Shown: positions 11,301 through 50,094 of the stretch, in pieces
How the letters are laid out: each line of letters begins with the position of its first letter
How positions within the stretch are numbered: the first letter of the stretch is position 1
Origin: an uncultured Duncaniella sp.
Lineage (GTDB): Bacteria > Bacteroidota > Bacteroidia > Bacteroidales > Muribaculaceae
Direction: 5' to 3'
DNA: 64,000 bases
Assembly: GCA_910586305.1 (NCBI GenBank)
Contig: CAJUGS010000014.1
Span: 360 to 64,359 of the forward strand
Notes under the pieces: generated by a model
The model's input: only the letters and a program-made list of their open reading frames with translations
What the model was told of the DNA's origin: nothing
Databases searched by the model: none
Program-made: the position numbers and the translations under genes

Positions 11301-11532
11301 CGTCAAGAACATATCATTGGGCTATACTTTCCCGAAACAGCTGATCAAGCGTGCAAGCATCGAGAACCTCCGCCTCTATTTCAACGTGCAGAATCCTTTC
11401 ACATTCACCCGCTACAAAGGATTCGACCCAGAAATCGGAGCCTACAACTACAACGTGCTCACACGCGGCATCGACTATGCCCGCTATCCGTCACAGGTGA
11501 TCTACACCTTCGGACTCAATGTCTCACTTTAA
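8377..11532 (+). CDS. SusC/RagA-family TonB-dependent outer-membrane transporter
   Basis: 1051 aa. CarboxypepD_reg-like N-terminus (GVVRGADDNMPLIGATVRV), TonB box/plug (DEVVVVGYGTMKRSDLTGSV), C-terminal barrel ending in F. Immediately followed by SusD. Confidence 0.95.
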   Translation: MQVALKKQRHLLRLIVAVLLGCVVFPSFAQDFKLTGVVRGADDNMPLIGATVRVQSGAVTVTDADGAFSVNVRKGQTVTFSYIGYTTQSIKVSDRSKVEIYLKEDSRTLDEVVVVGYGTMKRSDLTGSVVSVSAEDIKKTVATSLDQALQGRAAGVQVTQNSGAPGGGISVSIRGTNSLNGNEPLYVVDGVPLSGQADGNSNALSAINPSDIVSMEVLKDASATAIYGSRASNGVIMITTRRGEAGKTKLSYEGYYGIQNIPDRLDVMDLRQFATYRNLRAEVMGFGATKEFADVSILGKGTDWQDEIFRTAHMHNHQLTVSGGNDWGKYAIGLGYLGQDGIAIGSDFERLSGRINIDTNITKWLSFGVSASLSRTKQTNTIDNGNIIRTALDQHPNVPVRNPDGSYGYQTEDNNFGTFYANPVADALLREDYNRGTDFYGNLFADFKIIDGLNLRVEYGGGFNYSNHYYYRPTYDYGYFIQDSESSRSASNGKNYFFKTFLTYDKHIRNHSFNVMIGHESSENEYEYLSGSRKNYFLNSVHELVAGDALTAKNNSSRGSGSMESYFGRANYNFADRYLLTFTLRADGSSNFGKANRWGWFPSAAFGWRISQEKFMKNVEPVNNLKLRLGWGIVGNQNAGAYAYGTTMASSATIWGAGFYAGNYSNDKLKWEETKSYNVGLDLTMFNNRLEFIIDAYLKKTDNLLMQASLPDYVTSIISSPWVNAGAIENKGFEWTLNTVNISTRDFSWRTGFTFSLNRNKVTKLYTKTSSITGKIGADTYTNTVVGQPVGQFYGYNVIGMFKEADDFYVKDKNGDFMLDDNFNRILVAIPEGKTIKENEIWYGDYIFEDVNKDGVINESDRKFIGNPEPKFTYGFNTTLTYKDFDFNLSLVGVQGNKVFNYLRQVYTDPMRNSNLLLETTRLANVGLIDPDGGHTFENMHVINSDARICRIALDNSNNNNRMSSYFVEDGSYLRVKNISLGYTFPKQLIKRASIENLRLYFNVQNPFTFTRYKGFDPEIGAYNYNVLTRGIDYARYPSQVIYTFGLNVSL

Positions 11533-11543
11533 CCTGAACACCA

Positions 11544-17799: not shown

Positions 17800-17822
17800 T
17801 CCATAACACCCGCACAGAAACA

Positions 17823-19919
17823 ATGAAAAAAATCCAACTTCTCATAGCATCGGCATTACTGTCCGTCACCACCTCATTCGGCCAACAGAAATCATGGACT
17901 GCCGACAACGGCAACGGCACTTTCACAAACCCGCTGTTCTACGATGAATTTTCCGACCCTGACATCATCCGTGTCAATGACACATTCTATCTTGTCGGGA
18001 CCACCATGCACTGCAATCCAGGACTCGTGGTCCTCGAATCAAAAGATCTTGTCAACTGGGACTTCTGCAGTTACGCCTTCGACCGAATAGACATCGACGA
18101 TCCTCGCTTCCGGCTCGAAGACGGCAAAGAAGCATACGGACAGGGCATATGGGCCCCGTGCATACGTTATCATGACGGAACTTTCTACATCTTTTCCAAC
18201 ATAAACGGAATAGGCATGCAGGTCTACACAGCCTCTGACCCGAAAGGGCCCTGGAAACATTACAGCCTCGGAGGCTGGATACATGACCTGTCTGTACTCT
18301 TTGACAACGGCCGCATATACGCCATCCACGGCTACGACGAAGTGCACTGCATCGAGATCAAGCCTGATTTCAGCGGCTATGTAGATGGCAGCGACCGTTG
18401 CATCATACCCGCCGGAAACGCTATGGGTGAAGGCCACCACGCCTACAAGATCGACGGGAAATACTATATCATCAGCGCCGACTACTCCCCTATGGGACGC
18501 ATGATGTGTGCGCGCGCCGACCGCCTCGAAGGACCCTACGAAACCCGCGTCATCAGCTGCCGTGAAACCCTGGGCACTGAACATTCCACATGGGCCACAG
18601 ACATCCCTATGGACGGCGCCATGCCGGAACCGGGCAAATGGCGCCTGAAAACCGGCAAACCGAATGCCGACAACATGGGCTGCGCCACACTCCACCAGGG
18701 CGGAATAGTACAGCTCGAAAATGGCGACTGGTGGGGCTTTTCGATGCTTGACTTCCTTGCCGTGGGCCGCACCACCTGCCTGTCGCCTGTGACATGGGTG
18801 GACGGATGGCCCTATTTCGGCCTCCCCGGCAACCTTGGCCGCACGCCGCGCACTTGGCTGAAACCGCAGGTCAGCGCAACAGTGAAACCACACGCACCCT
18901 ACACCCGCAGCGACAATTTCGACAGCGGCCGGCTCCAGCCCGTCTGGCAGTGGAACCATCTGCCAGATGACAGCCAGTGGTCTCTGCGCAAAGGCCGTCT
19001 ACGGCTGAACTCACTTCCGGCCAAAGATCTCTATTGGGCAAAAAACACCCTCACCCAGCGTGGCATAGGTCCGGTATCCGTAGCCACAGTGACCCTCGAC
19101 GCATCCAAAATGAAGAAAGGCGATGTGGCAGGTCTCGGACTGCTCAACATTCCGTATGAATGGATAGGCATCGAGGTAAAAGACAACGGGCCGGTCATAA
19201 GCTTCTATGACCTTGGAACCGACACAACCATCGAGCAGCCTCTTAAAAAACCGGAACTGCACCTGCGAATAACAGGCGACTTCGAGCACGAATGGGCGCA
19301 GTTCAGCTACAGTACCGACGGCCAAAGTTTCAATGACATAGGCGGCAGAATGGTGATCCCCTATCAGACAAAAACCTTCCAGGGTGCACGCTATGCCCTC
19401 TTCGCGTTCAACCGTCTTCTCTCCAAAGGCGGCTATGCCGAATTCGACAATTTCACCGTTGACGAACCGCTTGCCGACCGCAGCGGCAACATTCCGCTCG
19501 GCAAGACCGTCACCATAAGTAATCTGGCCAACGGCCACAGACTGGTGGCCCACCGGCGCAAAATGGTGCTCTCGGCATGGCAGGGAGACAAAGACTTTGA
19601 TTCTGTCAACACCCGGTTCAGAGTCCATGACCGAGGCAACGGCAAGGTTGTGCTCGAAGCCGTCAACGGCAATGGCTTCATGACCGTGGCCGGACTCGGC
19701 TTGTCCGGTGACCTCCGCCTGTCAGCCACTGAGACCGATGACTGCCTTTTTATGTGGCAGGACATGCTCCACGGCCAGTGTATGCTTCTGTCTCTGAAAA
19801 CAAACCGCTATGTTGGAACCGATCCGGCATCCGGCGAGACCTATGGAGCCGACTGGCCCGGCACCTCCGCAAGCCGGCTCGGCGGCACTGTATTCCAGTG
19901 GGAAGACTCAGAATTATAA
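17823..19919 (+). CDS. GH43 beta-xylosidase/arabinofuranosidase-like enzyme with C-terminal beta-sandwich and an extra C-terminal domain
   Basis: Signal peptide. FSDPDIIRVNDTFYLVGTT, GIWAPCIRYHDGTFYIF, HDLSVLFDNG, GEGHHAYKIDGKYYI. The XynB-like C-terminal concanavalin-like region plus ~150 further aa bring it to 698 aa. Confidence 0.85.
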   Translation: MKKIQLLIASALLSVTTSFGQQKSWTADNGNGTFTNPLFYDEFSDPDIIRVNDTFYLVGTTMHCNPGLVVLESKDLVNWDFCSYAFDRIDIDDPRFRLEDGKEAYGQGIWAPCIRYHDGTFYIFSNINGIGMQVYTASDPKGPWKHYSLGGWIHDLSVLFDNGRIYAIHGYDEVHCIEIKPDFSGYVDGSDRCIIPAGNAMGEGHHAYKIDGKYYIISADYSPMGRMMCARADRLEGPYETRVISCRETLGTEHSTWATDIPMDGAMPEPGKWRLKTGKPNADNMGCATLHQGGIVQLENGDWWGFSMLDFLAVGRTTCLSPVTWVDGWPYFGLPGNLGRTPRTWLKPQVSATVKPHAPYTRSDNFDSGRLQPVWQWNHLPDDSQWSLRKGRLRLNSLPAKDLYWAKNTLTQRGIGPVSVATVTLDASKMKKGDVAGLGLLNIPYEWIGIEVKDNGPVISFYDLGTDTTIEQPLKKPELHLRITGDFEHEWAQFSYSTDGQSFNDIGGRMVIPYQTKTFQGARYALFAFNRLLSKGGYAEFDNFTVDEPLADRSGNIPLGKTVTISNLANGHRLVAHRRKMVLSAWQGDKDFDSVNTRFRVHDRGNGKVVLEAVNGNGFMTVAGLGLSGDLRLSATETDDCLFMWQDMLHGQCMLLSLKTNRYVGTDPASGETYGADWPGTSASRLGGTVFQWEDSEL

Positions 19920-19970: not shown

Positions 19971-21483
19971 CACAGCCATCTCCATTATCAGCATTCTGTC
20001 ATGGGCTACGGCAGCCAGAGTTTCCGCAGCCCCGGCAGTAGAGCAGTGGAAAATATTCGAACTCTCATTCCGGCAGAAAGCCGGACAGCATCCGTTTGAC
20101 AACATCGACTCCGGATGCACCTTCATCAACGGCTGCGACACCGTAAAAGTCAGCGCATTCTATGACGGCAACGACACATATAAAATCCGCTTCATGCCCC
20201 ACAAGCCCGGCCGGTGGACCTACCGCACTTCCGGAAACAGTCCGAAATCGAATCTGCGGGGCAGTTTCGATTGCCTCCCGGCATCACCCGGAAACCACGG
20301 TCCTGTCAGAGTCAACTCGCTCGGATTCGCCTACTCCGACGGAACCGCCTACATCCCCGTGGGTACTACCTGCTACGCATGGACACATCAGCCCGACAGC
20401 CTCATACAGCTGACACTCGAAACCCTCCGCAACAGCTGTTTCAACAAAATCCGAATGTGCATATTCCCCAAAAGCTACGACTGGAACCGCAACGAACCGA
20501 TTCTATACCCTTTCGAAGGTGAGACCGGCAGCTGGGATTTCAACCGTCTCAACCCCGCCTATTTCAGAAATATCGAACAGTGCATCGCCTCGCTTGACAG
20601 CCTCGGCATCGAAGCCGATCTGATTGTCTATCATCCCTATGACCGCTGGGGCTTCAGCAAACTCGACAGGGAAACCAGAGACCGCTACATGCAATATGTC
20701 ATCTCCCGCTTCAGCGCATTCAAAAACGTCTGGTGGAGCATGGCCAACGAATATGACTTCATGGATGCCTATACTGAACAGGATTGGAAATACCATCTTG
20801 AATTTTTTGCTGACAATGACCCGTATGACCATTTGAGAAGTATCCACAACGGGGTGAAACTTTATGACCACAGCGACCCGAATGTGACCCATGTAAGTAT
20901 TCAGGCACCCGATACCGACAATGCCGGCAACCTGTGTCGCACATATTGCAAACCGGTCATATATGATGAGTGTCGTTATGAGGGCAACATTCCTTGGGTG
21001 TGGGGCACACTGTCAGGTGAAGAAATGGTTCAGAAGTTCTGGAGCGGTTTTCTTTCGGGCGGATTTGTCGGACACGGCGAGGTGTTGCTGACCGACAGTT
21101 CGGTGGCTCCTGAAAAGTCTGATGAGGTCCTCTGGTGGTCAAAGGGGGGAACACTCCGCGGCAAGAGCCACGAACCCATCAGGTTTCTAAAGAAAATTCT
21201 TGAAAAGTCTCCTGAAGGGGCAAAGCCTGTAAAAGGTATTACCGGATGGCAGAATTATCCCACCCTCGGGTGTGATGACAAATGGTTTCTGGTATACACA
21301 GGTCGAGACATCCATCGCCAGATGGTGCTTGAACTTCCCGACGATTCGGATTATGAAATCTCTTTGATTGATACCTGGAACATGAATGTCATTCCGGTCG
21401 AAGGTCGATTCCGCGGCCGGTCTATAGTTCCGATAAAGGAACTGCCCTATATGGCCATCATCATAACCGCTGTCACCAACTGA
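19954..21483 (+). CDS. DUF5060/DUF4038-type putative glycoside hydrolase (clan GH-A-like, GH140-related fold)
   Basis: Start set at ATG 19954 (MNRIISTAISIISILSWATA signal). N-terminal Ig-like module (WKIFELSF...YKIRFMPHKPGRWTY), then a TIM-barrel-like part (NKIRMCIFPKSY...WWSMANEYD). The family assignment is from memory. Confidence 0.6.
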   Translation: MNRIISTAISIISILSWATAARVSAAPAVEQWKIFELSFRQKAGQHPFDNIDSGCTFINGCDTVKVSAFYDGNDTYKIRFMPHKPGRWTYRTSGNSPKSNLRGSFDCLPASPGNHGPVRVNSLGFAYSDGTAYIPVGTTCYAWTHQPDSLIQLTLETLRNSCFNKIRMCIFPKSYDWNRNEPILYPFEGETGSWDFNRLNPAYFRNIEQCIASLDSLGIEADLIVYHPYDRWGFSKLDRETRDRYMQYVISRFSAFKNVWWSMANEYDFMDAYTEQDWKYHLEFFADNDPYDHLRSIHNGVKLYDHSDPNVTHVSIQAPDTDNAGNLCRTYCKPVIYDECRYEGNIPWVWGTLSGEEMVQKFWSGFLSGGFVGHGEVLLTDSSVAPEKSDEVLWWSKGGTLRGKSHEPIRFLKKILEKSPEGAKPVKGITGWQNYPTLGCDDKWFLVYTGRDIHRQMVLELPDDSDYEISLIDTWNMNVIPVEGRFRGRSIVPIKELPYMAIIITAVTN

Positions 21484-21507
21484 TTGTCACAGAAATTTTC
21501 AAAACTT

Positions 21508-21668
21508 ATTTAACGTGAGTTCGATATAAGCAATATACCATTCAACAATAAAACAATCAGCCATTTAGATTTGCACTAAATGGCTGATTTTCTTGGTGTT
21601 CTCGCGAAAAATCCGTAAATTTATAGTGCCTAATTAACGTGATTTCTTATATCGAACTCACGTTAAAT
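21508..21668. repeat. 161-bp element bounded by perfect 23-bp inverted repeats, with nested hairpins (MITE-like or inverton-like)
   Basis: atttaacgtgagttcgatataag (21508-21530) is the exact reverse complement of 21646-21668. A third ttaacgtga copy lies at 21634-21642. tta flanks both ends (21506-21508 and 21668-21670). Confidence 0.8.
21555..21596. terminator. Bidirectional intrinsic terminator between convergent genes
   Basis: aatcagccatttag (21555-21568) pairs with ctaaatggctgatt (21576-21589): 14-bp perfect stem, 7-nt loop. T-rich on the plus side (ttttctt) and A-rich upstream (aataaaac), which gives a U tract for the minus strand. Confidence 0.7.
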
Positions 21669-21707
21669 TATGGATAATCCTGGTCATGGTATTTTTTGTC
21701 AAATGAT

Positions 21708-22412
21708 TTATTTGTTTTGCAGTTCCTCAATTATTTTCCACATATGTCCAACAAGCTCTCGGAGTTCGTCAATCCGCATCTGCTGCTCTTCGTTTTGTAT
21801 CATTAAATCTGCTATTCTCTTCTCAATTTCTGAAGAATTTAACTCTTGGTATTCAATTCTTTCTTTGTTTTCTCTTGTCAGATGGTAGATTTGTTCTGAG
21901 ATGTCTCGGAGTTCTTTGGCGTTTTCTTCGAGATCTATTACAGAAGCTTGGATTCTGGCGATATCATTCGTGTTTTTTTCAGCGTGACATCTGTTGTCAT
22001 ACACCATTTCGCGAAGTTCTTCGCAGTCGCCGGATCTGGCTGCATACATGGCTGTCGGGACTGACTGTATCCCCGAGGTGTAGACCGTGGTGTAGTCAGA
22101 GCCTCCTTTGAGATCTATGCCGACCTGCAGGAGAAGGCCCTCGCATGTCCAGTTGACATCTGAAAGACCGTTTTCGACAGTGCTTCCTATCTGCCACTTT
22201 ACAAGTCCCTGCGAAGACGACTTGACGACAGTCTCTTCCGCGAATAAGATGTCGTCGCCGGCGACGATGGCAAATCTGAGACCAATTGATGTGTCAGCAG
22301 CCGGGTTTCCATCAGCATTGTTTATAACAGCTTGATAATTCATGGTGTTAAGTCCGGCCAACATGGAGAGAGTGGAGAGAGCGGCTATAATGAGAGTAAG
22401 AAATTTTTTCAT
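21708..22412 (-). CDS. Secreted hypothetical protein: N-terminal beta-rich domain plus ~90-aa C-terminal coiled coil
   Basis: Signal peptide MKKFLTLIIAALSTLSMLAG. The NYQAVINNADGNPAADTSIGLRFAI motif recalls repeats at the N-termini of Bacteroidota tail-fibre-like surface proteins (from memory). The C-terminus is heptad-rich (IDLEENAKELRDISEQIYHL...IDELRELVGHMWKIIEELQNK). Confidence 0.5.
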   Translation of the reverse strand: MKKFLTLIIAALSTLSMLAGLNTMNYQAVINNADGNPAADTSIGLRFAIVAGDDILFAEETVVKSSSQGLVKWQIGSTVENGLSDVNWTCEGLLLQVGIDLKGGSDYTTVYTSGIQSVPTAMYAARSGDCEELREMVYDNRCHAEKNTNDIARIQASVIDLEENAKELRDISEQIYHLTRENKERIEYQELNSSEIEKRIADLMIQNEEQQMRIDELRELVGHMWKIIEELQNK

Positions 22413-22915
22413 TTTACGACGAATTTAAAGGATTTGTGAGTATTGTTTTTGGTTACAGCCATGGCAATATACAGGCCGGGGGAGAGTGTTGGTAGTTTTA
22501 CGACGGTGCTATATGCTCTGCTGACAATGATTTGTCCGGAGATCTCGGTTACTACTACTTTGCACTGTGAGCTTCCATCTGGAAGTGTCACAAGCAGTGT
22601 GTGCGTTTCTTCACAATAGGCAATCTCCGGGCGGTCATTCTCGGTATACTGGGTCAGGTCGAGACTTGAAGAGCTCTGTGACACTCCAGTGAGCGTGGCA
22701 AAGAGGCCTTGCAATACAGGAATGTCGCCTTCCGTTACTTCCGGAAGGGATATAGGCGACCCTATTTCCTGACTTATTGATAGTCCGGCAAGCGTTGTGA
22801 CTGAGATTTCGGATGTGTAGTCCTGTAGGGTAATTTCCGGAGTTTGCGAAGATGAATATACCGGAATAATCACTCCTACTGAAAGGGCTACAATACCTTT
22901 TCTGATAAGAGTCAT
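22409..22915 (-). CDS. Small secreted protein with T9SS (Por) C-terminal sorting domain
   Basis: 168 aa, N-terminal signal. The C-terminus CKVVVTEISGQIIVSRAYSTVVKLPTLSPGLYIAMAVTKNNTHKSFKFVVK fits the type-A CTD pattern. It overlaps the downstream gene by 4 nt (ATGA). Confidence 0.55.
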   Translation of the reverse strand: MTLIRKGIVALSVGVIIPVYSSSQTPEITLQDYTSEISVTTLAGLSISQEIGSPISLPEVTEGDIPVLQGLFATLTGVSQSSSSLDLTQYTENDRPEIAYCEETHTLLVTLPDGSSQCKVVVTEISGQIIVSRAYSTVVKLPTLSPGLYIAMAVTKNNTHKSFKFVVK

Positions 22916-23308
22916 AGCTAAATTGTTTAGAGTGTGATATTGCTTTCAGACGTTTTGGGCCTGAATGTTACATATTTGGATAGTTGCAAGTGAAATACAT
23001 TGGTCGGGTTGTTGATTATAGCCGTCAGAGACAAGAATGGCATAGGTATTAGGTCAACATATCATAAAGAAAAAATACATTTGTTTGACTAATAATCCAT
23101 TTAATATGCAAAATTAATGGATAAATGTTTTATTTAACCCCTTTAGATTGTTAAGATTTGCTAAAGAAAAGTGTGTTTCTTTTTATGATACTTTGTGAGA
23201 TGGTGCATTATCCGATTGTAGTTTGTGTTTTTGAGATGTGACAAATATTAGTTAATTTTACATTCTGAAACGATATGAATATGAAAACTCACATACAATT
23301 TGAATAAT

Positions 23309-24634
23309 ATGAAAGGTGGACCTGTTGAATTAGCGCGGATTTCGACCTTGCGCGGACTTCTCGGGCTTTCTCCCGTAGTGGTCTTTATGTTGGCCTATCT
23401 TGCTGTGTCGATTGTCATCGGTGATTTCTACAAGATGCCTCTCTCGGTGGCGATTCTTGTGGCTTCGATATGGGGTATGGTGGTCTATACCGGTGGAGGC
23501 AGTCTTGCGTCTCGCATAGAGACGTTCTCACGTGCGGCGGCACATCCGAGCATAATGTATATGGTGTGGATCTTTATCATGGCCGGTGCGTTTGCCTCTG
23601 TTGCGAGGGAGATTGGTGCTGTTGATGCCACGGTAGAGCTTACACTCAGATGCTTTCCTGCAAGATTCATCGTGCCTGGCCTTTTCGTGGCAGCCTGTCT
23701 CATATCGCTTTCCATCGGCACTTCGGTCGGCACTGTGGTGGCCCTCACTCCTCTTGCGGCAGATATAGCCGGTATGTCGGGCGACAGTCTGGCGTTCTAT
23801 GTTGCCGTGGTGCTTGGAGGAGCGTTTTTTGGCGATAATCTTTCGTTTATTTCCGACACCACCATTGCCGCTACCCGTTCGCAGGGATGCAAGACGGCCG
23901 ATAAGTTCAGGGCTAATCTTTGGATTGCGCTTCCGGCGGCCATAGTCACTCTCGTTGTATATGTGCTGATGAGTTCCGGAGCGTCTCAGCCTGTGGTCGA
24001 GGGCCATCATTCTCCATGGCTGGTGGTGCCATATGTAGTCGTCCTTGTTGCAGCTGCCTGTGGTGTGAATGTTATGATAGTGCTATTGCTCGGACTTGTC
24101 TCTGCTTTACTGCTTGGCATTTTGGACGGATTCAGTATAATATCGCTTTTCGGAGCCATGGGGGCCGGTATAGGTTCCATGGGCGACCTCATAATAGTCA
24201 CCCTTCTGGCTTCGGGAATGCTCGGCATCATCAAGGCCGCCGGTGGCATTCAGTATCTGCTTCAGTGCCTGTCGGCGCGCGTGAGCGGTCTGCGGGGTGC
24301 GCAGGGATGCATAGCCGTGCTGGTGGCACTCGTCAACCTGTGTACCGCTAACAACACTGTTGCCATTATTACGGTAGGAGGTATAGCTCGCGAAATCTGT
24401 GGCCGTTATGGGGTGGATCCGCGCAAGAGCGCGTCGCTGCTCGACTCCTGCTCGTGTATTGTGCAGTGTCTTATTCCCTACGGGGCACAGACTCTCCTTG
24501 CCACTTCGCTTGCCGGTATCCCTCCGGTGGCTCCATTTGTGTATCTGTACTATCCTTGGGCGCTTGCCGCAATGGTGGTTCTTTCCATTCTGTTCCTGTT
24601 TCCCGGCTCCTATTCCCGCAAGACAGCCGATTGA
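23309..24634 (+). CDS. nhaC: Na+/H+ antiporter, NhaC family
   Basis: About 441 aa and polytopic. The GGAFFGDNLSFISDTTIAATRSQG motif is typical of NhaC. ATG 23309 is preferred over the TTG at 23300. Confidence 0.8.
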   Translation: MKGGPVELARISTLRGLLGLSPVVVFMLAYLAVSIVIGDFYKMPLSVAILVASIWGMVVYTGGGSLASRIETFSRAAAHPSIMYMVWIFIMAGAFASVAREIGAVDATVELTLRCFPARFIVPGLFVAACLISLSIGTSVGTVVALTPLAADIAGMSGDSLAFYVAVVLGGAFFGDNLSFISDTTIAATRSQGCKTADKFRANLWIALPAAIVTLVVYVLMSSGASQPVVEGHHSPWLVVPYVVVLVAAACGVNVMIVLLLGLVSALLLGILDGFSIISLFGAMGAGIGSMGDLIIVTLLASGMLGIIKAAGGIQYLLQCLSARVSGLRGAQGCIAVLVALVNLCTANNTVAIITVGGIAREICGRYGVDPRKSASLLDSCSCIVQCLIPYGAQTLLATSLAGIPPVAPFVYLYYPWALAAMVVLSILFLFPGSYSRKTAD

Positions 24635-41979: not shown

Positions 41980-41987
41980 CAAAGGTA
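41980..41987 (-). promoter_or_regulatory. -7 box (TACCTTTG) for the PurF-like gene
   Basis: The reverse complement of caaaggta matches TAnnTTTG, ~47 nt upstream of ATG 41933. It separates this gene transcriptionally from the operon upstream. Confidence 0.4.
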
Positions 41988-42055: not shown

Positions 42056-45000
42056 TCAGTTCACCACTGAATCGAGGTCGAGCTTACGCAGAGTGAGTAT
42101 AGTGAGGATGTCGGGATTCCGGCTTTCCGTCGTGACAGGGATATACGGGAAGAATGGAGTGAGAAACCGCCTCCAGCGGTCGGTGTCATCAGCTGTCACC
42201 GAGGCAAGGACAAAGCGGCATTCAGCAGAGTTGTCGTTGGCTATGTGGCGTGTGGCCACGTTGCTCATGCGGTTGAGACTCATGAACGTTTCTTGTGGCG
42301 TGGGTTGGGCAAGGTATGGATAGTGGATTCGCCCGGTGAGGTAGTTGACAATGTTGAAATCCTTGAAAATCTCGCATAGACTGTCGCGCACGGTTGACTC
42401 GATGATTTCGCGCGGATCATCGGCCTCTTCCGAGGAGGCGTAAGAGGCAAATAGCTTGGTGAGATCTATACGGCTCACTATGCACGGTGCCGAGTTGTCA
42501 AAGAAAGCCTCGAGCGCAGCCGGATTGGTAAGGCTCACGAACATTGCCTCATTGAATGCATCAATTGACTCCGACCTGGCTGTGGCCTCGTCATACCACT
42601 CGGAAAGCATGGAGTTGTAGTCGGCCAGACGGCGGTAGAGGGCGTCGAGCTTCATATTGGCTTCGTGGAGTGAATCGATAACCATACCGGCTGTGTGGAA
42701 ACGCAGCTGTGTTTCAAGCAGCATCCTGCGTTGCAAGGATATTTGAGCTGCGATTTCCTCCATCTCACTCTGCAAATCATGCCGGTGGTTGCGGCAGGCT
42801 GTGCGGTAGTACAGCCACACCATCACCGTTATAAAAATGATAGCTCCGGCCACAATGCTCGTCCATAGGGTGTCGAGTGTGAATACCTCCAGGGAGACGA
42901 GAAGTATGAATATGCCGAGGGCTATTACCGATGCTCCGCTCCAGACCAGGGCGCGGCTGAGATACGTCTTGCGGAATAGCTTGAGCCGTTCCGGGAAGGC
43001 GTTCATTAGTTTGCGGTGGCGTGCCTCGAGATTGGATATGCTTTCCTGCTGTCTTTCTTCGGACAGACATCTCAGTTCGTCGCGCACATTGGGAAGACAT
43101 AGCCGCTCGATGAGATGGCGATAGTAGCGGTAGTTGGTCTCGTATAGCTTAGTCAGGCTTTCGAGTCTCACCCGCGCTTCGTCAAGAGTGTTGGATATGG
43201 CCGCGATTTTTATCTGGGTTTCTGTTCCGGCAAACGGTGCTGTCAGTTGAGGCACACGTCCTCCTTTCTGGCCTTCGGGTGCTTGCTCGGTAGTCTGTGT
43301 GATTATACAGGCAAAGTTGTTGAATTCCGGGTCGTCCACGTAGGCCGATGAGATGTAGCAGTAACCCTTGTCGCCAAAGTCTTTGCCCCAGGAGTTGCGC
43401 ACGATATAGCACTTGTCGATTTCCGAATAGCCTGTTATTACCATTGCGTGGTATCCTTCCTCGCCTTCGGCTATCTCGCTCTCGGTGGGTCGGCCCACAT
43501 GGCCGTCTGGAGTGTGGGGGAAGGATGGATATACCTTGAGAGAGAACCCCACCGGATAGCCTTCTGACAGGGCGGAGGTGAGCAGCCTGTGGTTGGTCTC
43601 GATGCATTCCATCCTGCTTCCCTCGGTCATGAGTGGTATTTGGCAGGCTTTGAGCACTCTGTGGCCTTCGGCTTCCGAGGTAGCGGCGGCCGAGGGTGGC
43701 ACGGATATATTTTCCGGAGAATAGGGACACAGTTCCTCGGTGCATATGCCGAGTCGTCCCATCACGGAGAGCTGCTCGTAGAAGTTGCTCCCTCCTTCGG
43801 GGCGCCCGGACATAACGTTGCTGTGATAGAAGAGAAATCTCTCGCTCAGTGATGCTTCCGGGCTATTGCTGCTTTCGGAGTGGAGGCGGTTGATGATGTA
43901 TTCATACATCGCTGTCGTTGCAAACGATGAGCAGGATCCGACACTACCCTGGCTTCTGACGGCCGAGAAGTAGCGTCGCAGGTCAACGGACGGGAGTATC
44001 TTGAGATCCGGGGCGGGTGTGTATTTAGCATCGAGTGGTTGCTCGCGTATTTCGAAATTGCCGGGGCGGTGGTGTATCTCCTCGCGACGGCGTGAGGCCT
44101 CCTCGTTGTTAAGATTTTTGCGCAACATTTCAAGTTCGGATTCCTTGCCCCTTATATAAGAGGTAAGGTCAAGGATGTCCGACTTGAGGCGTTTTATCTC
44201 TGGAAGCGGGTTGAATGCATGGTTGTTTGCTTCGTCCTCCACATACTCCATGCGCGCCTGGTCATAGTGATAGCGTTTCAGCTCGGGGAAGTTCTGTGGT
44301 GTGGGCAGAAGACCGGTGTACAGTGCGTTGCGATTGAACGAATCGATAAATATCGATGCCGGTTCGGTGTAAGCATCGTCGAAATACAGTGGTTCCTGTT
44401 TGTACAGCATTCCTTTCAGTCGCGGATTGTCGCGGCCAAGAAGAAGTGCCAGCGTTGCTTCACGTTCGGGCAGTGAGAGGGCCGGGTTGTTGACAAACTC
44501 TGTGATTCGGTCCGTGAGTGCCCGGGTGCTGCGTTGTAGAGCCGGGTAAATCTGTCCGGCTATGTCGCTTTCGGACAGTTTGCGCTCATATAGCGGGCTC
44601 ACTTCGCTGTTGTAGAAGTCGTTGTAGAATCCCTCGATTCCGTTCAGCGCGTTCATAGCCCGTTCGGCTGCGCCCTGAGTGTCGACAGTGGTCTGTGTGA
44701 TTCCGTTTTTCTCAAGGGTCGAGGCCACAGTGCGGTTGAGGAGGTAGTCAGTGATTTCCCATCGGTCAAACCGCAGGCGGGCAAGTCCGATGCTGATGAG
44801 ATTGGAAGATCCGGCCGGGAAGAATCCCGGTGTAATCACTGTCGCATAGTTCTCTGAAAGAGATGCTATTATTGATGCGATGAACTCCGAGAGGCGACGG
44901 AGTGTGAATCCTATCGCCGCACCGGTAGCCACATAGTCGTCAACGAGTGCCAGTGAGCAGTGGAATCTCGACGAGGCTGTGAGGGCGTCGATGGAGCGAA

Positions 45001-45397
45001 TATTCTCCTTCTGTATCTCTCGGCAGTCGGCCGGAAGTTCGTGTCCGAGCAGATGGGCGAGGTTGTATTGCAGCCCTATTATGTCGAGAGAAATAGAGTT
45101 TCCTGTCTGCTCCACAGCCTCGATGATATTCCTGGCCGTTTCAGCAGCCTCCGGCACGAACAACGGTATGATGGCAATGGTGTGGAGAGTTGTGTCGGCC
45201 GAGTCTATCGTGATATGCTCGCGATACATACCCGCCAGGCTCGATGTGAGCCGGTCTGTCGTCAGTCCATCGCAGTCGAGCGGTGTGTAGAGACTTGGTA
45301 ATTGTGGCGTTTTAGCCACGGCAAGACTCACCTCGGTGGAGAGTTGCCCGGTTATGGGCGATGGCCATAGGCCGATGATGGGTGTGGCGGGATGCAT
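42056..45397 (-). CDS. 1113-aa multidomain protein: N-terminal Rossmann-like (possibly degenerate tubulin-like) domain, coiled coil, papain-like C1 cysteine peptidase, coiled coil, TM hairpin, C-terminal domain
   Basis: C1 catalytic set with papain spacing: Q483-G-S-V-G-S-C489 (the Cys codon is 43931-43933), YH650AMVITGY, IVRN668SW670G. Two TM helices at aa ~816-836 and 845-864 (nt 42806-42952). No signal peptide. 13 nt downstream of the tubulin-like gene. Confidence 0.8.
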   Translation of the reverse strand: MHPATPIIGLWPSPITGQLSTEVSLAVAKTPQLPSLYTPLDCDGLTTDRLTSSLAGMYREHITIDSADTTLHTIAIIPLFVPEAAETARNIIEAVEQTGNSISLDIIGLQYNLAHLLGHELPADCREIQKENIRSIDALTASSRFHCSLALVDDYVATGAAIGFTLRRLSEFIASIIASLSENYATVITPGFFPAGSSNLISIGLARLRFDRWEITDYLLNRTVASTLEKNGITQTTVDTQGAAERAMNALNGIEGFYNDFYNSEVSPLYERKLSESDIAGQIYPALQRSTRALTDRITEFVNNPALSLPEREATLALLLGRDNPRLKGMLYKQEPLYFDDAYTEPASIFIDSFNRNALYTGLLPTPQNFPELKRYHYDQARMEYVEDEANNHAFNPLPEIKRLKSDILDLTSYIRGKESELEMLRKNLNNEEASRRREEIHHRPGNFEIREQPLDAKYTPAPDLKILPSVDLRRYFSAVRSQGSVGSCSSFATTAMYEYIINRLHSESSNSPEASLSERFLFYHSNVMSGRPEGGSNFYEQLSVMGRLGICTEELCPYSPENISVPPSAAATSEAEGHRVLKACQIPLMTEGSRMECIETNHRLLTSALSEGYPVGFSLKVYPSFPHTPDGHVGRPTESEIAEGEEGYHAMVITGYSEIDKCYIVRNSWGKDFGDKGYCYISSAYVDDPEFNNFACIITQTTEQAPEGQKGGRVPQLTAPFAGTETQIKIAAISNTLDEARVRLESLTKLYETNYRYYRHLIERLCLPNVRDELRCLSEERQQESISNLEARHRKLMNAFPERLKLFRKTYLSRALVWSGASVIALGIFILLVSLEVFTLDTLWTSIVAGAIIFITVMVWLYYRTACRNHRHDLQSEMEEIAAQISLQRRMLLETQLRFHTAGMVIDSLHEANMKLDALYRRLADYNSMLSEWYDEATARSESIDAFNEAMFVSLTNPAALEAFFDNSAPCIVSRIDLTKLFASYASSEEADDPREIIESTVRDSLCEIFKDFNIVNYLTGRIHYPYLAQPTPQETFMSLNRMSNVATRHIANDNSAECRFVLASVTADDTDRWRRFLTPFFPYIPVTTESRNPDILTILTLRKLDLDSVVN

Positions 45398-45410
45398 TGC
45401 GTGCGTAGTG

Positions 45411-48194
45411 TCAGAATTCGTCGGTGATGTAGTTCATTTCTTCATTGAGAATGTCGGCGGTCGCCTTGAGACGCGGATCCTCAAGCTGCTCGATGGTGTA
45501 TTGGCAGCCTGAGAAGTCGGTGAGGTATGTCCCGTCGTCCACTGAGGCCTTGGCCCGGCGCAGACGGTCGAGCATTGTGGTGTCTTCGCCAGGCATACCC
45601 ACTTTGTCGCGCTCTTTTTCTATTTCGGGAGCGATAATGTCAAGATTGTCAATTAATGTAGAGAGCGCTTCCTCTCGGCTTGCACCGAGTTGGACGCGGT
45701 AGCCGTTGAGAGGTTTGCCGCCCATGGCCCGGCTGCGTATTATATAGGCCTCCTTGCTCGGATCGCGCACGATGATGCCAGCAACGATGGCAAATGTCCA
45801 CAGGGCAATGACCTTGGAGCGTGAGATGTCGTCGTGTGGCTCAAGGTCGAAGCGTTCACGTTTCATACGTCTGGCCATCTCGGCATCGAAGTGGCTGGTA
45901 AACTCCTTGTCTTCTTCAAAACGGTTGTATTCCAGAATATAGTTGTCAAGGGAGGTCAGCGTGAAAGCGGGCACAACGCCTATCTGGCGGTAGATGATGA
46001 TGCGGTCGCTTATACCTGTGGTGGAGTAGTCAACCGAGCTGGAACCGGGAAGTATGTTGCGCAGGTGGTCGCGACGCGAGATGCGCGATTTTGCCTTGTC
46101 GGCCACACCGACATAGAAGTTGTCGACAGGACGGTCTTTGATGTCCGAGTCGTAGCCACGGTAGCTGTAGGTGAAGAGAGGCATGGCCTTGCTGACCGCG
46201 CGGTGGCACAGACGGTCGAAACTGTCATCGTCCATTGCGTCGATAACCTGGTCGATGGTGGTGTTCTTGAGTTCTTTTACCTTGGGTAGTGTGGAGGCGA
46301 AGTCGTTGAACAAACGCGATGTCTCGGCAGCCGACATGGTCGAAATTGTCTGTATGCCACCGTCGGTAGACATGAACTTGATGAAGTCGTTGAACACAAT
46401 GTCCTGGGCCGGACAGGTGATTTTCTCGGCTTCCGGACCGGTGAGGTCTACCTGGAAGAGGTTGGAGTTGCCGATGTTGAGAAGCTTGCGCTCTATGGTG
46501 CGTCCACACTCCTCGTCGACGGCATGGAGGTTGGAGAGGATGATGTTGACGCGGTCAAACGACTGACCTATGCGGGTGCGTAGCCAGTAGTAGAAGTCAC
46601 GGGCCATCTGTCGGCGTGTGATTTCGCGCCGGGTTCTGGCCACTGTCATGGTTCGGTCACACACCTCGGCTGAAAGCTCTCTGCGCTTGCCTCCCGAGAA
46701 TATGCCTCGTGTCTCCGACAGTTCTTTGCAGGTGCTTTCGAGCGAGCTTTCCTGGCGTGGAAGCAGTTCTTCCAGTCCCTTCATCTCAGTGTGCATCTCT
46801 CCGTCACACAGCTCTATCTGTGTCAGTATGGCCTTGAGTATATGTTCGCACAGGTATATGCCGCATTCGCGGTTGGACTGCTCCTTCATGAAGTCGGAAA
46901 GGGCTATGTCCACACGGCTTTTGAGTGCGTTGAGTTTTTCAATGAGCGACTCGGGACTTTCTGTGGCAATATTGGCGAGGAAGTGGTCCACCTCCACCTT
47001 GGGATTTTCCGGACTTTCGATTTCCGAGAGTGACCTTGGGGAGGCTGCTGGCATGAAATAGTCGATTACGTCGTCTTTTTCGAGGTTCTCGCGTATGCGT
47101 GTGTTGGTGAACCAGTTGTTGGCAAGCACCGATGGATCGTCACATCCGCCGTTGCGCATACGGTTGATAATCTGGCGTATGGCTTTCAGTGTGTATATTT
47201 CGCTGAGTGTATGGCTGCTGAAGAGAATCTCCGATACGCCGAATCCGGCTGCCCATGCTTTTTTGTTGCGGATATCCATGGTGCCGTCGTTAATCTGCTT
47301 GGCCACGTTGTCGCTCACAGACGCAGTGGCTACGCTCAGTTCGCCGGTGGAGGTTACGAGCGCCAGAGATATCATCTCGCACAACTGGTCGACGTTGGAG
47401 AACATATCGTTGTTCTCGTTGCGGTTGTCAATGAAATAGAAGGCTGTGAACGGACGTTCGCGCACCATCTCGGTCGAACGTAGCCACTTCAGTTCCACCG
47501 GCAGAGAGCCTGGTCCCAGATGCATCAGGAAGTCGAGGTCGCGTATTGCACCCATGGCATTGGGGCGTACACGTGCCATTCCTGCACCGTGCATCATGGC
47601 TCTGAACACGTCGGCCATCACGGCATAGCCCGAGAGTTTGGCTTCCGGAAGTATTCGCTTGATGAGGTAGGCCATGTTGAGGAAAGTGCCACACCCTGTG
47701 CCTCCGCCGAGCGAGAACACAAGGTGTACTTCCACTTCGTTGGAGAGAAGTCCGTAGCGTGGATTGTCGATGATGGCTGCCGAGTTGATCTGGCGCAGTT
47801 TTGATGATAGTGAGTTCACCACGTCATCCTCGCGTATGGTGACGGCAAAGCGGCCGTTCGTTCGTATCGCCCCTGCTCCGATATTCAGCGATGTCAGCGC
47901 GGCTGTATTGCAGGCCGGAATCCAGCCGAAGTTGCCGGGGGTGCGCAGATAGATGGCCGATGGCGAATTTACGGATATGGGAAGTTGCTCCGACGACGAG
48001 AGGGTGATGGGTGTTCCGTCTTTGGCGGGAAGTGATTTGTTGTACACGCCTCCGTCGGTGTCAATACCGAGAAATCCCAGCATTGGAGGTATTTCTCCAT
48101 AGGTGTCATAGAGTATCTTCTTGGTGTGGAGGAGTGCGTTCATGCCTGTGCCGCCAAGGCCGATGAAGAGAGTGCGTCTGAGTTTGGTAGCCAT
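45411..48194 (-). CDS. Divergent tubulin/FtsZ-superfamily GTPase (Tubulin_2-like), 927 aa
   Basis: T1 GLGGTGMNA (aa 12-20). T3 GAGAIRTNGR (aa 106-115), with the same spacing as FtsZ GAGANPEVGR. T4/tubulin signature GGGTGCG (aa 163-169, nt 47688-47708). A long, uncharacterised C-terminal ~600 aa follows. Confidence 0.8.
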   Translation of the reverse strand: MATKLRRTLFIGLGGTGMNALLHTKKILYDTYGEIPPMLGFLGIDTDGGVYNKSLPAKDGTPITLSSSEQLPISVNSPSAIYLRTPGNFGWIPACNTAALTSLNIGAGAIRTNGRFAVTIREDDVVNSLSSKLRQINSAAIIDNPRYGLLSNEVEVHLVFSLGGGTGCGTFLNMAYLIKRILPEAKLSGYAVMADVFRAMMHGAGMARVRPNAMGAIRDLDFLMHLGPGSLPVELKWLRSTEMVRERPFTAFYFIDNRNENNDMFSNVDQLCEMISLALVTSTGELSVATASVSDNVAKQINDGTMDIRNKKAWAAGFGVSEILFSSHTLSEIYTLKAIRQIINRMRNGGCDDPSVLANNWFTNTRIRENLEKDDVIDYFMPAASPRSLSEIESPENPKVEVDHFLANIATESPESLIEKLNALKSRVDIALSDFMKEQSNRECGIYLCEHILKAILTQIELCDGEMHTEMKGLEELLPRQESSLESTCKELSETRGIFSGGKRRELSAEVCDRTMTVARTRREITRRQMARDFYYWLRTRIGQSFDRVNIILSNLHAVDEECGRTIERKLLNIGNSNLFQVDLTGPEAEKITCPAQDIVFNDFIKFMSTDGGIQTISTMSAAETSRLFNDFASTLPKVKELKNTTIDQVIDAMDDDSFDRLCHRAVSKAMPLFTYSYRGYDSDIKDRPVDNFYVGVADKAKSRISRRDHLRNILPGSSSVDYSTTGISDRIIIYRQIGVVPAFTLTSLDNYILEYNRFEEDKEFTSHFDAEMARRMKRERFDLEPHDDISRSKVIALWTFAIVAGIIVRDPSKEAYIIRSRAMGGKPLNGYRVQLGASREEALSTLIDNLDIIAPEIEKERDKVGMPGEDTTMLDRLRRAKASVDDGTYLTDFSGCQYTIEQLEDPRLKATADILNEEMNYITDEF

Positions 48195-48233
48195 GATATA
48201 TTGTTTGATAGGTTTTTCTTTGGAAAGTGTGGG

Positions 48234-50048
48234 TTAGACTGAAAGATAGGTCTTGTCTCCGGTGTTGATATTTGTGAGAGTGTATTCATTTCCCTTTTCG
48301 AGGCGAGCCGTGGGTGCGATGTCCCAGATTGAATTACGTGTCATTCTGGCTGCATTGCGGGCAGGGAGTAGTTCGATGGCAGGTGTGAAGTGGTCGGCGC
48401 GGATATATATTATCCTGCCTGTGAATATGCGACTGAAAATGTTCTGGCTCTCTCTGCGGGAAGTCAGCACTGCTTTTCTGGCCCCGCGAAGCCGCTTTGT
48501 GGCAAAGTAGCTTCCGGGTCCTTGCATCTGTATGGTGAGTGACTTGAAAGTGGGGTATACCATTCTTTTAATAAACAGAAACCACAGTATCAGTGCGGAC
48601 AGCAACACTATGCCAATCCATACCAGCAGGGTCTTCAGCGGGTTCCAGTCGACACTGTATGTGGTGCGGAAGGGTAGTTCGCTCACAGCCCCTATGCTCA
48701 CACCATTCAGCATTTCAATATCGCGACTGTCGCGGTTGACGAGACTGAAATACCTCTTGCCGGTTTCTGCATCGGTGTCAAATGTGATGCCCAGCCGGGC
48801 TTCCTTTCCGGGCTCGACGATGAATGTCTCTCCCGGTCCAACAGGCTGTCCGTTGAAGCTGACTTTGAAGTCGGAGGAGTCGCCGTTGGCCGGCACGACC
48901 GCGAGGACAGCCATTGGGTGGTCGTTGTCTGTGTTGGTGAATTTCGCAGCTAGGTCTATCACTATTTCTTCCTGGGGCGCGGCATCGCTCCACAGAAAAG
49001 CCGGATACCATTCGGCACCAGGTTTCACAATAACCTCGTCGGTGTCGCCACCGAGCAGTGACAGTTTGCGCAGGGCGCGGTTGGCCATGATTACTGTAAC
49101 CTCGGGATTGACTATCGTCATGTGCGGGTCCTTGGAGTTGACTGTGAATGTGAACTCATACATCCCGTCTTCATCGGTCTCCTCAGCGAGGCGGTTGTTA
49201 AGCTCTTCCACCGAGATGTCTCCACGTGGAGAGAATCTCACATTAATATTATAGTCGGAGCTTTTGCCTCCCTCCACGCTGACGTTGAAAAAACGGTCGG
49301 CACATTTTGCCTCTACAGGATAGGGTTCCTTCTCGCTGAATCCAATACTATATGTCTTGTTGAGTTCGAGTGTGTTTGCATATATCACGTTGCCAATGTC
49401 GGATATGGTCGGTATCTCTCCATCCGTACATTTGATACTGTAGGCGTCCGAACATCCGGCCAATGCTTCGTCAAGAGCAGGATCGGAGGCCACCCCATCG
49501 AGCATCACGTAGAAAAACTGTGTGTTTTTATGGGCTGCACACCACTCTCTGATGAGACGGCACACGGCTGGCGTGCCGTGTACCTCGTCCTTGCCATCGG
49601 TGAGAAGGTATACGCGGTTGTCCATGGCCGGATTGACATTTCTCATGCCGGCCTTGAAGGCCTCATAGATATTTGTCTTGGAGTGGGGTGTAGAGATGAT
49701 TTTGTCGAGTCGCTCGAGAATTCCGGCCCTTTTCTTTTCATATTCGCTTCCGTCGAAAACGATTTCATTGAATGGATTGTCCTGGAACGGGACTATGACA
49801 AATCGGCTCTCCGGGTCATGGCTCTGGCGTGTCACAGTTCTGTCAAGAGCATTCTTGGCCGGTTCCCACATATTAATTTCCGGACTCTTCATGGAAGCCG
49901 TGCAGTCAAATATATATATGTAGTTGCGCTGCCTCTGGGCCGAAACGGTGACGCTGCTGAAAACGAGCAGAAAGAGTGTCGCTAAAATCACAGAGGTGTA
50001 CTGTCGGGCGCATGATGTGCGCCATACGGGGAAATGTGATATCATCAT
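48234..50048 (-). CDS. Exported von Willebrand factor A (MIDAS) protein with a C-terminal TM anchor and ~110-aa cytoplasmic tail
   Basis: Signal/anchor VILATLFLLVFSSVTVSAQ. MIDAS D63-C-T-A-S67 (nt 49893-49907), T140, LLTD166G. Beta-rich middle region. TM LLVWIGIVLLSALILWFLFI (nt 48570-48635) followed by KR-rich residues. Residue numbers count from the ORF-track start at 50093. The start is probably ATG 50048 (MMISHF...), because the upstream codons are AT-rich and contain a TATATTTG box. Confidence 0.8.
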   Translation of the reverse strand: MMISHFPVWRTSCARQYTSVILATLFLLVFSSVTVSAQRQRNYIYIFDCTASMKSPEINMWEPAKNALDRTVTRQSHDPESRFVIVPFQDNPFNEIVFDGSEYEKKRAGILERLDKIISTPHSKTNIYEAFKAGMRNVNPAMDNRVYLLTDGKDEVHGTPAVCRLIREWCAAHKNTQFFYVMLDGVASDPALDEALAGCSDAYSIKCTDGEIPTISDIGNVIYANTLELNKTYSIGFSEKEPYPVEAKCADRFFNVSVEGGKSSDYNINVRFSPRGDISVEELNNRLAEETDEDGMYEFTFTVNSKDPHMTIVNPEVTVIMANRALRKLSLLGGDTDEVIVKPGAEWYPAFLWSDAAPQEEIVIDLAAKFTNTDNDHPMAVLAVVPANGDSSDFKVSFNGQPVGPGETFIVEPGKEARLGITFDTDAETGKRYFSLVNRDSRDIEMLNGVSIGAVSELPFRTTYSVDWNPLKTLLVWIGIVLLSALILWFLFIKRMVYPTFKSLTIQMQGPGSYFATKRLRGARKAVLTSRRESQNIFSRIFTGRIIYIRADHFTPAIELLPARNAARMTRNSIWDIAPTARLEKGNEYTLTNINTGDKTYLSV

Positions 50049-50062
50049 TAAGGATTTATTCG

Positions 50063-50094
50063 CAAATATAAACATTATAATTGGATTGCACAAG
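50063..50094 (-). promoter_or_regulatory. Candidate promoter of the vWA/tubulin-like/protease operon
   Basis: The reverse complement of caaatata (50063-50070) is TATATTTG, which matches TAnnTTTG. The -33 element is only partial (cTTG, 50091-50094). It would give a very short 5' UTR before ATG 50048. Confidence 0.35.

Follow-up and report, generated by a model that had tools for sequence, protein, structure and literature searches.

A three-gene module on a 64,000-nucleotide (nt) stretch of DNA from an uncultured Duncaniella sp. (called the window here; contig CAJUGS010000014.1 of assembly GCA_910586305.1) is a compact Bacteroidales version of the vWA–FtsZl1 operon class and encodes a three-protein inner-membrane machine. 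Its genes specify an exported protein with a von Willebrand factor A (vWA) domain and a metal ion-dependent adhesion site (MIDAS) (gene 1), a predicted GTPase of the FtsZl1 family (gene 2) and a membrane-anchored scaffold protein carrying a papain-like peptidase (gene 3). FtsZl1 is among the most divergent branches of the tubulin/FtsZ superfamily, and the two functions proposed for it so far from genome context (membrane remodelling and immunity) are incompatible with each other. Here we report that the protease is an insert in a conserved scaffold protein, missing in some relatives, and that this third component has not been analysed before; that the vWA gene occurs either fused or split, and that a secreted nuclease or ion-channel gene directly follows the module in some relatives; and that relatives in the Thermaceae lie beside BrxL. 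We tentatively propose that the module serves envelope-sensing surveillance in biological conflict, with a proteolytic output.

The three genes occupy large open reading frames (ORFs) that run in one direction on the minus strand of the window (48234..50093, 45411..48194 and 42056..45397). Their coordinates confirm the gaps that an earlier note, made from the letters of this DNA alone, had given for three co-directional genes: the spacers are 39 nt between genes 1 and 2 (48195–48233) and 13 nt between genes 2 and 3 (45398–45410). The flanking genes are, as the same note held, unrelated to the module, with a GATase_7 (PurF-like) gene downstream and a divergent pta–ackA pair upstream.

Gene 2 places the module in its class. 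Its features, with positions in the window, are as follows.

45411..48194, minus strand: gene 2, FtsZl1/Tubulin_2 GTPase, 927 amino acids (aa)
47145..48194, minus strand: tubulin/FtsZ-like domain, aa 1–350
48144–48161, minus strand: T1 loop GLGGTG, aa 12–17
47688–47708, minus strand: T4 loop GGGTGCG, aa 163–169, in which a Cys replaces the Ser/Thr of the signature GGGTG(S/T)G
47310–47312, minus strand: invariant D295
46476..46862, minus strand: two long helices, aa 445–494 and 501–573, forming a coiled-coil stalk
45414..46469, minus strand: C-terminal alpha/beta domain, aa 576–927, of no recognised family

The protein matches the Pfam family Tubulin_2 (PF13809) from end to end (aa 9–343 on profile positions 1–355 of 356; E=1.4e-42, 146.6 bits against a cut-off of 27), and Pfam gave no match to PF00091, FtsZ_C or Tubulin_C. 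An orthologue profile searched against the sequences of solved structures retrieved no tubulin and no FtsZ, and the family is therefore very divergent; its tubulin fold was revealed by structure comparison only. An AlphaFold model built from 46 sequences, with a mean predicted local distance difference test (pLDDT) score of 85, was compared with the Protein Data Bank (PDB) by Foldseek, and the top 50 matches were all tubulin-superfamily chains, including beta- and gamma-tubulin, CetZ and BtubB (best E=4.7e-5; 340–450 columns aligned; 211 matches at E<=1e-3), with modest template modelling (TM) scores of 0.33–0.47 on the target. The glycine loops are conserved in full, G12, G14–G17, G164–G167 and G169 being invariant in 46 homologues. 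D295, which in the model starts a helix in the H8 position after an H7-like helix, is a candidate catalytic acid of the T7/H8 type. The stalk helices, 50 and 73 residues long, are modelled with a pLDDT of about 90. The fold and the T1 and T4 glycine loops are shared with FtsZ, TubZ/PhuZ and the tubulins, from which gene 2 differs in matching no solved member at the sequence level, in an extension of 580 aa that is unique to FtsZl1, and in a genomic context that holds no division or plasmid-partition genes. GTP hydrolysis and polymerization are predicted activities of the gene 2 protein, which is taken to be cytoplasmic.

Relatives of gene 2 number at least 484 among the 185,579 species genomes scanned, and the locus comparisons reported here rest on 80 related loci (identified by L numbers) kept from these relatives. 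Searches with tblastn found the trio with identical order and strand in 76 of the 80 loci; a 77th, L071, carries a diverged and split gene 1 that was recognized on inspection, and the remaining three are truncated by contig ends. Wherever the flanks of a locus are complete, a gene 1 homologue adjoins the upstream side of gene 2; the intergenic gaps are mostly 0–50 nt, and the gene 2 proteins are 32 to 68% identical to the window copy. The hosts belong to two phyla, Bacteroidota and Fibrobacterota, and comprise Muribaculaceae, Paludibacteraceae, Prevotellaceae, Bacteroidaceae, Alistipes, Tannerellaceae and two Fibrobacter assemblies. One contig (L034, CAVCPY010000280.1) is labelled Eggerthellaceae; its gene 2 is 90% identical to that of the Bacteroidales assembly L031, and it is most likely a mis-binned contig. 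The flanks are not conserved: 238 neighbouring ORFs fall into 187 clusters, only four loci have any gene in common with the flanks in the window, and the synteny of those flanks does not extend past the sister species. The conserved entity is the three-gene unit (four genes in the split form), in keeping with the self-contained module that the earlier note had described. Within this unit, mean identity is highest in the tubulin domain of gene 2 (0.60), and lies at 0.17–0.38 in the periplasmic and scaffold parts.

It is scarcely credible, in view of this conservation, that the genes are chance neighbours or decaying remnants without a joint function. The order and strand persist down to 32% identity and across two phyla, the gaps stay short, the ORFs are intact, and the catalytic, MIDAS and GTP-loop residues are invariant. 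A broken gene, such as a remnant might show, is seen in one low-coverage assembly of the same species (L083), where the gene calls divide gene 3 (8798–12138) into ORFs of 589 and 524 aa, probably owing to an assembly error or a frameshift.

Gene 1 supplies the part of the machine that would face outwards.

48234..50048, minus strand: gene 1, exported vWA-MIDAS protein of 604 aa, with a C-terminal membrane anchor and a cytoplasmic tail
49938..50048, minus strand: signal peptide, aa 1–37 (hydrophobic aa 19–37), with predicted cleavage between VSA and Q
49404..49928, minus strand: vWA domain with MIDAS, aa 41–215
48639..49403, minus strand: periplasmic middle region, aa 216–470, a separate lipoprotein gene in split variants
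48570..48626, minus strand: transmembrane helix, aa 475–493, strongly hydrophobic and followed by KR
48237..48569, minus strand: conserved cytoplasmic tail of about 110 aa, aa 494–604

The single sequence scores 16.1 bits against the Pfam family VWA_4, under the 27-bit cut-off. When 30 orthologues are combined into a profile, solved vWA domains are matched at E=1.7e-14 to 7e-4, the best being 4cn8 (E=1.7e-14) and complement C2 (E=1.5e-6), and the split-gene orthologue in L036 clears the Pfam VWA cut-off. The MIDAS consists of D48-x-T50-x-S52, T125 and D151, of which D48, S52, T125 and D151 are invariant in the 30 sequences. The A–Q junction at the predicted cleavage site is kept across the 30 orthologues, and a Q at position +1 is typical of Bacteroidetes signal peptidase I substrates. 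The middle region is the least conserved part of the protein (mean pairwise identity 0.28, against 0.36 for the vWA domain); in the tail, Q535 is invariant, and F542 and G544 nearly so. Judged from these sequence features, the vWA domain would lie in the periplasm, with one membrane crossing and the tail in the cytoplasm.

About 30 of the 80 related loci carry gene 1 as two overlapping genes. The first encodes a vWA protein with a signal peptide (about 335–345 aa), and the second a protein of about 300–315 aa with the C-terminal helix and tail; in the sole example inspected (L036), this second part begins with a lipoprotein-type signal.

Gene 3 encodes the third and largest component.

42056..45397, minus strand: gene 3, scaffold with a papain-like peptidase insert and a membrane hairpin, 1113 aa
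44828..45397, minus strand: N-terminal alpha/beta (Rossmann-like) domain, aa 1–190, without a nucleotide-binding motif
43298..44005, minus strand: Peptidase C1 domain, aa 465–700
43949–43951, minus strand: catalytic Q483
43931–43933, minus strand: catalytic C489
43448–43450, minus strand: catalytic H650
43394–43396, minus strand: catalytic N668
42812..42940, minus strand: membrane hairpin, aa 820–862, with two hydrophobic helices, a short acidic loop and basic flanks
42059..42790, minus strand: cytoplasmic C-terminal domain, aa 870–1113, of no recognised family

The peptidase matches PF00112 over aa 470–685 (E=2.9e-16; 60.7 bits against a cut-off of 20.7), its nearest solved structure is 3ois (E=3.2e-20 over 226 residues), and Q483, C489, H650 and N668 are invariant in all 72 aligned homologues. 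With C1A papain peptidases it shares the PF00112 family, the Q-C-H-N catalytic residues, the NSWG motif and the match to 3ois, which is itself described as a ‘Cysteine protease’. Those enzymes typically carry a signal peptide and an inhibitory propeptide and are made as zymogens, either secreted or lysosomal, whereas here the domain is internal to a 1113-aa, hairpin-anchored cytoplasmic protein whose N terminus has no hydrophobic segment and no signal peptide. The hairpin puts both ends of the protein in the cytoplasm, and the protease is therefore cytoplasmic; that it undergoes activation is presumed.

The peptidase is not an obligatory part of this protein. The Fibrobacter homologue (868 aa) has no Peptidase_C1 domain, and the alignment shows that its N-terminal domain, hairpin and C-terminal domain are kept; five further proteins of 824–866 aa (P0199, P0218, P0246, P0262 and P0272) were scanned and gave no Peptidase_C1 match. 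Since the peptidase-less relatives keep the scaffold, the protease is an insert in it. The N-terminal domain is modelled by AlphaFold with a pLDDT of about 90 over aa 1–150 and of 63–82 from there to residue 180. Foldseek returned nothing for it at E<1e-3 in the PDB and BFVD, its weak matches being a mixture of short-chain dehydrogenase/reductase (SDR), FtsZ, TubZ, EF-Tu and Rab/small-GTPase folds, and hhalign aligned it with gene 2 over 27 columns at a probability of 0.6%; we make no claim that it is a hidden tubulin domain. Its family counts 221 clusters (at 50% identity) among 1.84 billion representatives, and most members are 1100–1250 aa long. A second protein search with the alignment of gene 3 homologues gave no new full-length homologues beyond nine already known, and one weak, unrelated protein of 833 aa (P0132, 19% coverage). 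NCBIfam holds no match for any of the three module proteins.

Two further observations concern gene 3. Its C-terminal domain weakly resembles gene 2 aa 502–742 in hhalign (E=0.0027, probability 11–13%), and a hidden Markov model of the domain did not place gene 2 proteins above background ORFs; the homology is unconfirmed and we do not claim it. A public protein of 1609 aa (P0214), which counts in favour of the genes forming one functional unit, combines the gene 3 N-terminal domain, Peptidase_C1 and a Tubulin_2 domain in one ORF; it is a genuine fusion or else the result of reading through neighbouring genes ordered gene 3 then gene 2.

Taken gene by gene, these results bear out how the earlier note had read the proteins. 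It had expected a Tubulin_2-type match for gene 2 with GGGTGCG as the T4 loop, an exported vWA domain with a complete MIDAS in gene 1 (found with the orthologue profile, the single sequence being sub-threshold), and in gene 3 a C1 peptidase with C489 as the catalytic cysteine, tethered by its hairpin to the inner face of the membrane. Its label of a candidate novel system was too strong, as the module belongs to a published class. Makarova and Koonin (2010, Biol Direct 5:33, PMC2875224) defined FtsZl1, reported that most FtsZl1 operons hold a vWA gene whose product has membrane segments and an intact MIDAS, and from genome context predicted that the class forms a membrane-remodelling system. 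The trio itself already stands in Additional file 5 of that paper, where Bacteroides caccae ATCC 43185 is listed with BACCAC_02056 (hypothetical), 02057 (FtsZl1) and 02058 (COG4870 cysteine protease), without comment. Our module shares with the class the PF13809 protein, the vWA partner with its intact MIDAS and membrane segments, and, in the AlphaFold model, the succession of an FtsZ-like domain at the N terminus, a long coiled coil and a C-terminal domain. It differs in that the vWA, kinase, P-loop GTPase and OmpA-like partners are those treated in PMC2875224, of which the non-vWA ones do not occur in this module, whereas a protease-bearing third gene is not discussed there. The 2010 analysis could not place T6–H7; here the model aligns to tubulins over about 350 columns.

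A second line of work reads related operons differently. Kaur et al. (2020, eLife 9:e52696, PMC7159879) described operons of tubulin, vWA and GAP1-N2/GTPase genes as NTP-dependent conflict systems, with the GAP1-N2 tubulin systems reported from Firmicutes and Actinobacteria. Like our module, these have a tubulin-domain protein fused to a coiled coil or helical C terminus and a membrane protein with an extracellular vWA domain, they are predicted to act near the membrane, and their lineage-specific components vary. They differ in being defined by GAP1-N2 and by paired TRAFAC (DO-type) GTPases with FNIII-repeat proteins: no GAP1-N2 or TRAFAC gene was found in the module, none recurs among its neighbours, and none of the three proteins has a P-loop GTPase match. 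A papain-like protease scaffold is not described in that study, in which ‘papain’ denotes a peptidoglycan peptidase of another system. Santana-Molina et al. (2023, PMC9871819) considered the Tubulin_2 group divergent and set it aside. The two functions named in the earlier note, conflict and membrane remodelling, are both readings already in the literature, and its statement that FtsZ-like families with vWA neighbours had been noted only computationally agrees with PMC2875224 and PMC7159879.

Given these components, we propose the following sequence of events. A periplasmic protein ligand would bind the vWA/MIDAS site, and the signal would be relayed through the tail of gene 1; the relay would trigger GTP-dependent assembly of gene 2 on the membrane; this assembly would cluster the gene 3 scaffold and turn the protease on; and the activated protease would cleave cytoplasmic targets, with growth arrest or death as the outcome of this envelope surveillance. 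The protease may be one among several exchangeable outputs. A role of this kind in biological conflict with phages or other invaders is a reading that we hold as possible and short of probable. We favour it because the output is exchangeable, the peptidase being present or absent and a nuclease or channel gene being appended; because conservation is much higher in the GTPase than in the sensor and the scaffold; because the module is patchy and crosses phyla; and because BrxL and other defence-type genes accompany the Thermaceae relatives. Should polymerization of a tubulin homologue indeed gate a protease on a periplasmic ligand, this would be a new use of the tubulin fold and a new type of bacterial transmembrane signalling. 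A bolder form of the idea, in which the gene 3 scaffold is a second, degenerate tubulin-like subunit that has lost its GTP loops and caps or co-assembles with the gene 2 polymer, so that assembly gates the effector (the protease in Bacteroidales, the linked channel or nuclease elsewhere), is a long shot; if true, it would amount to a cytoskeleton-based immune switch triggered from outside by a vWA receptor.

The exchangeable genes lie 3′ of gene 3, and recurrent neighbours are limited to DUF6565 lipoproteins, Endonuclease_NS proteins and Ion_trans channel proteins. Endonuclease_NS genes follow gene 3 in five loci (L028 8320–9105, L031 7245–8021, L034 12764–13546, L056 14248–15027 and L041 14635–15513). 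The distance from the gene 3 stop to their start is 3–5 nt in L028, L031 and L056 and 73 nt in L034, and in these four loci their products have signal peptides; the L041 protein has an N-terminal hydrophobic segment instead, and its gene is the second one downstream. Ion_trans genes, which encode voltage-gated-type channels, are found in L026 (9069–9875), L027 (14243–15025), L064 (15463–17532) and L067 (9848–12166). The L027 gene begins 5 nt past the gene 3 stop and the L026 gene overlaps gene 3; both Fibrobacter loci have a larger Ion_trans protein downstream of a gene 3 without peptidase. Within one clade, whose gene 2 proteins are 77–90% identical, the slot directly after gene 3 holds Endonuclease_NS in L031, L034 and L056, Ion_trans in L026 and L027, and a housekeeping GH2 glycosidase in L030, while in L025 the next ORF lies on the opposite strand and there is no linked gene; the gaps in this clade are 3–6 nt, with a short overlap in L026 and 73 nt in L034.

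Distant relatives of the module are cassettes on Thermaceae megaplasmids (L087, NC_014213.1; L088, NZ_CP021131.1; L089, NC_019387.1), which run vWA, Tubulin_2 and a hypothetical protein of about 680 aa, followed in all three records by a BrxL-like gene with BrxL_N and BrxL_ATPase domains and without a Lon domain. In Allomeiothermus silvanus (pMESIL01) the three-gene cassette has an IS701 copy on either side, the two copies being identical, and in Meiothermus taiwanensis it comes after DUF1156, helicase and HEPN genes. These cassettes agree with our module in the order of vWA, Tubulin_2 and a third large gene, in vWA domains homologous to that of gene 1 (hhalign E=7.5e-13), and in a gene 2 alignment of 27–32% identity over the first 320–510 residues. 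They differ in that the third gene has no peptidase, that the vWA proteins have no signal peptide at the annotated start, and that a BrxL-like gene adjoins. A location in defence islands holds only for these distant relatives.

Several results weigh against a role in conflict. No similarity to gene 3 is detectable in the Thermaceae third gene, and a shared island may be all that lies behind the BrxL linkage. The 125 immediate neighbours of the Bacteroidales and Fibrobacter loci are ordinary metabolic and envelope genes in Pfam and PADLOC scans, and no defence-system profile was matched by more than two of them; these loci are not defence islands. None of the three proteins matched a family in PADLOC-DB v2.0.0 at E<=1, in line with the impression of the earlier note that the combination was no named defence system. 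The linked nucleases, as their signal peptides indicate, are predicted to be exported rather than to act as cytoplasmic suicide effectors. Within the species there is no sign of the presence/absence polymorphism that the same note had suggested looking for: among the contigs read, 23 have the exact Pta protein of the window, and every one of these has the module too. The closest related species has the module beside the same GATase gene, which looks like vertical inheritance. A scan of viral contigs did not find the module, and a search of a phage collection gave one weak, partial and unannotated match. A literature search by BACCAC locus tags, FtsZl1, PF13809 and tubulin-like defence yielded no experimental study of FtsZl1 proteins.

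Part of this evidence speaks for the function originally predicted in PMC2875224 from context. The gene 2 polymer, anchored on the inner membrane by genes 1 and 3, would shape the membrane or organize vesicle or envelope biogenesis, and the protease would trim components of this cytoskeletal machine. Of the three proteins, two insert into the membrane and the other combines a cytoskeletal fold with a long coiled coil; the neighbours are housekeeping and envelope genes outside any defence island; the module is present in all contigs of the species that were read and keeps the same adjoining gene in the sister species; and the nearby DUF6565 lipoproteins, exported nucleases and channels are envelope proteins. 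We nevertheless consider membrane remodelling rather unlikely, although it is a serious rival. For a core envelope function one would expect a wider distribution than at least 484 relatives in 185,579 species genomes, or than the 221 clusters of the gene 3 N-terminal domain family; presence or absence of the peptidase and differing appended genes in close relatives are unusual for a structural machine; and the prediction has no experimental support. If it were true, a dominant group of gut bacteria would have an extra cytoskeletal system.

The same layout, with a sensor outside, the membrane, and a protease inside, would also suit transmembrane signalling of envelope or nutrient status, in which the vWA domain binds a ligand that is periplasmic or host-derived, the GTPase serves as the switch, and gene expression changes through cleavage of a cytoplasmic regulator by the protease, with no conflict involved. 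Many loci do lie among carbohydrate and central-metabolism genes, and the module is stable within the species. We think this improbable, however: the module has no conserved neighbour that is a DNA-binding protein or a sigma/anti-sigma partner, a 927-aa tubulin-fold coiled-coil protein would be an odd switch for simple signalling, and the peptidase-less variants with channel or nuclease genes do not fit cleavage of a regulator.

The Bacteroidales form lends itself well to experiments that would decide between surveillance in conflict and these alternatives. Of the self-contained versions it is the smallest, comprising three genes and a single promoter region; its layout runs clearly from outside to inside, and the point mutation C489A offers a way to abolish the enzymatic output. 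The trio also occurs in a culturable strain, Bacteroides caccae ATCC 43185.

Two promoter-type boxes flank the module.

50063..50070, minus strand: TATATTTG, −7 promoter box of the Bacteroides type, 15 nt upstream of the ATG of gene 1
41980..41987, minus strand: TACCTTTG box, before the next gene (GATase_7, ATG at 41933), marking the 3′ boundary of the module

Gene 1 likely starts at the ATG at 50048 (604 aa). The longer ORF opens at a TTG at 50093, downstream of which the TATATTTG box sits, and public gene calls give 604 or 613 aa; for the GATase_7 gene, the public call also starts at 41933. Both boxes agree with those reported in the earlier note. The promoter 8-mer occurs 33 times in the window where 21 are expected, a mild enrichment, and the boxes are therefore weak evidence alone; simple scans for terminators and sigma-70 promoters did no better than shuffles.

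Lipoproteins of about 120 aa adjoin the module in seven loci: in L032, L035, L036 and L072 (about 5709–6074), and directly after gene 3 in L040, L041 and L044. DUF6565 was matched by 7 of the 125 neighbours scanned; the L032 protein was individually confirmed, and the L040 protein gave no individual Pfam match. In L071, from Paludibacteraceae, a second Tubulin_2 gene (17803–18636) lies about 3.4 kilobases past gene 3, with a TPM-domain ORF before it, which suggests tandem FtsZl1 modules of differing composition. In two Muribaculaceae loci that belong to different gene 2 subclades (L007 14356–16776 and L016 14440–16860), gene 3 is followed some 300 nt downstream by an ORF of 806 aa. Only the L007 copy was scanned, and it has HSP70 and TPR domains; among the themes of the conflict systems in Kaur et al. 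(PMC7159879) are HSP70 partners.

The nearest relatives of the window are Duncaniella and other Muribaculaceae assemblies, and it is matched by contig CARAWL010000014.1 of the uncultured assembly GCA_948942395.1. At some distance from the module, at positions 20001–24000, the G+C content falls to 0.46–0.47 and the GC and AT skews flip sign, which suggests a switch of the dominant coding strand.

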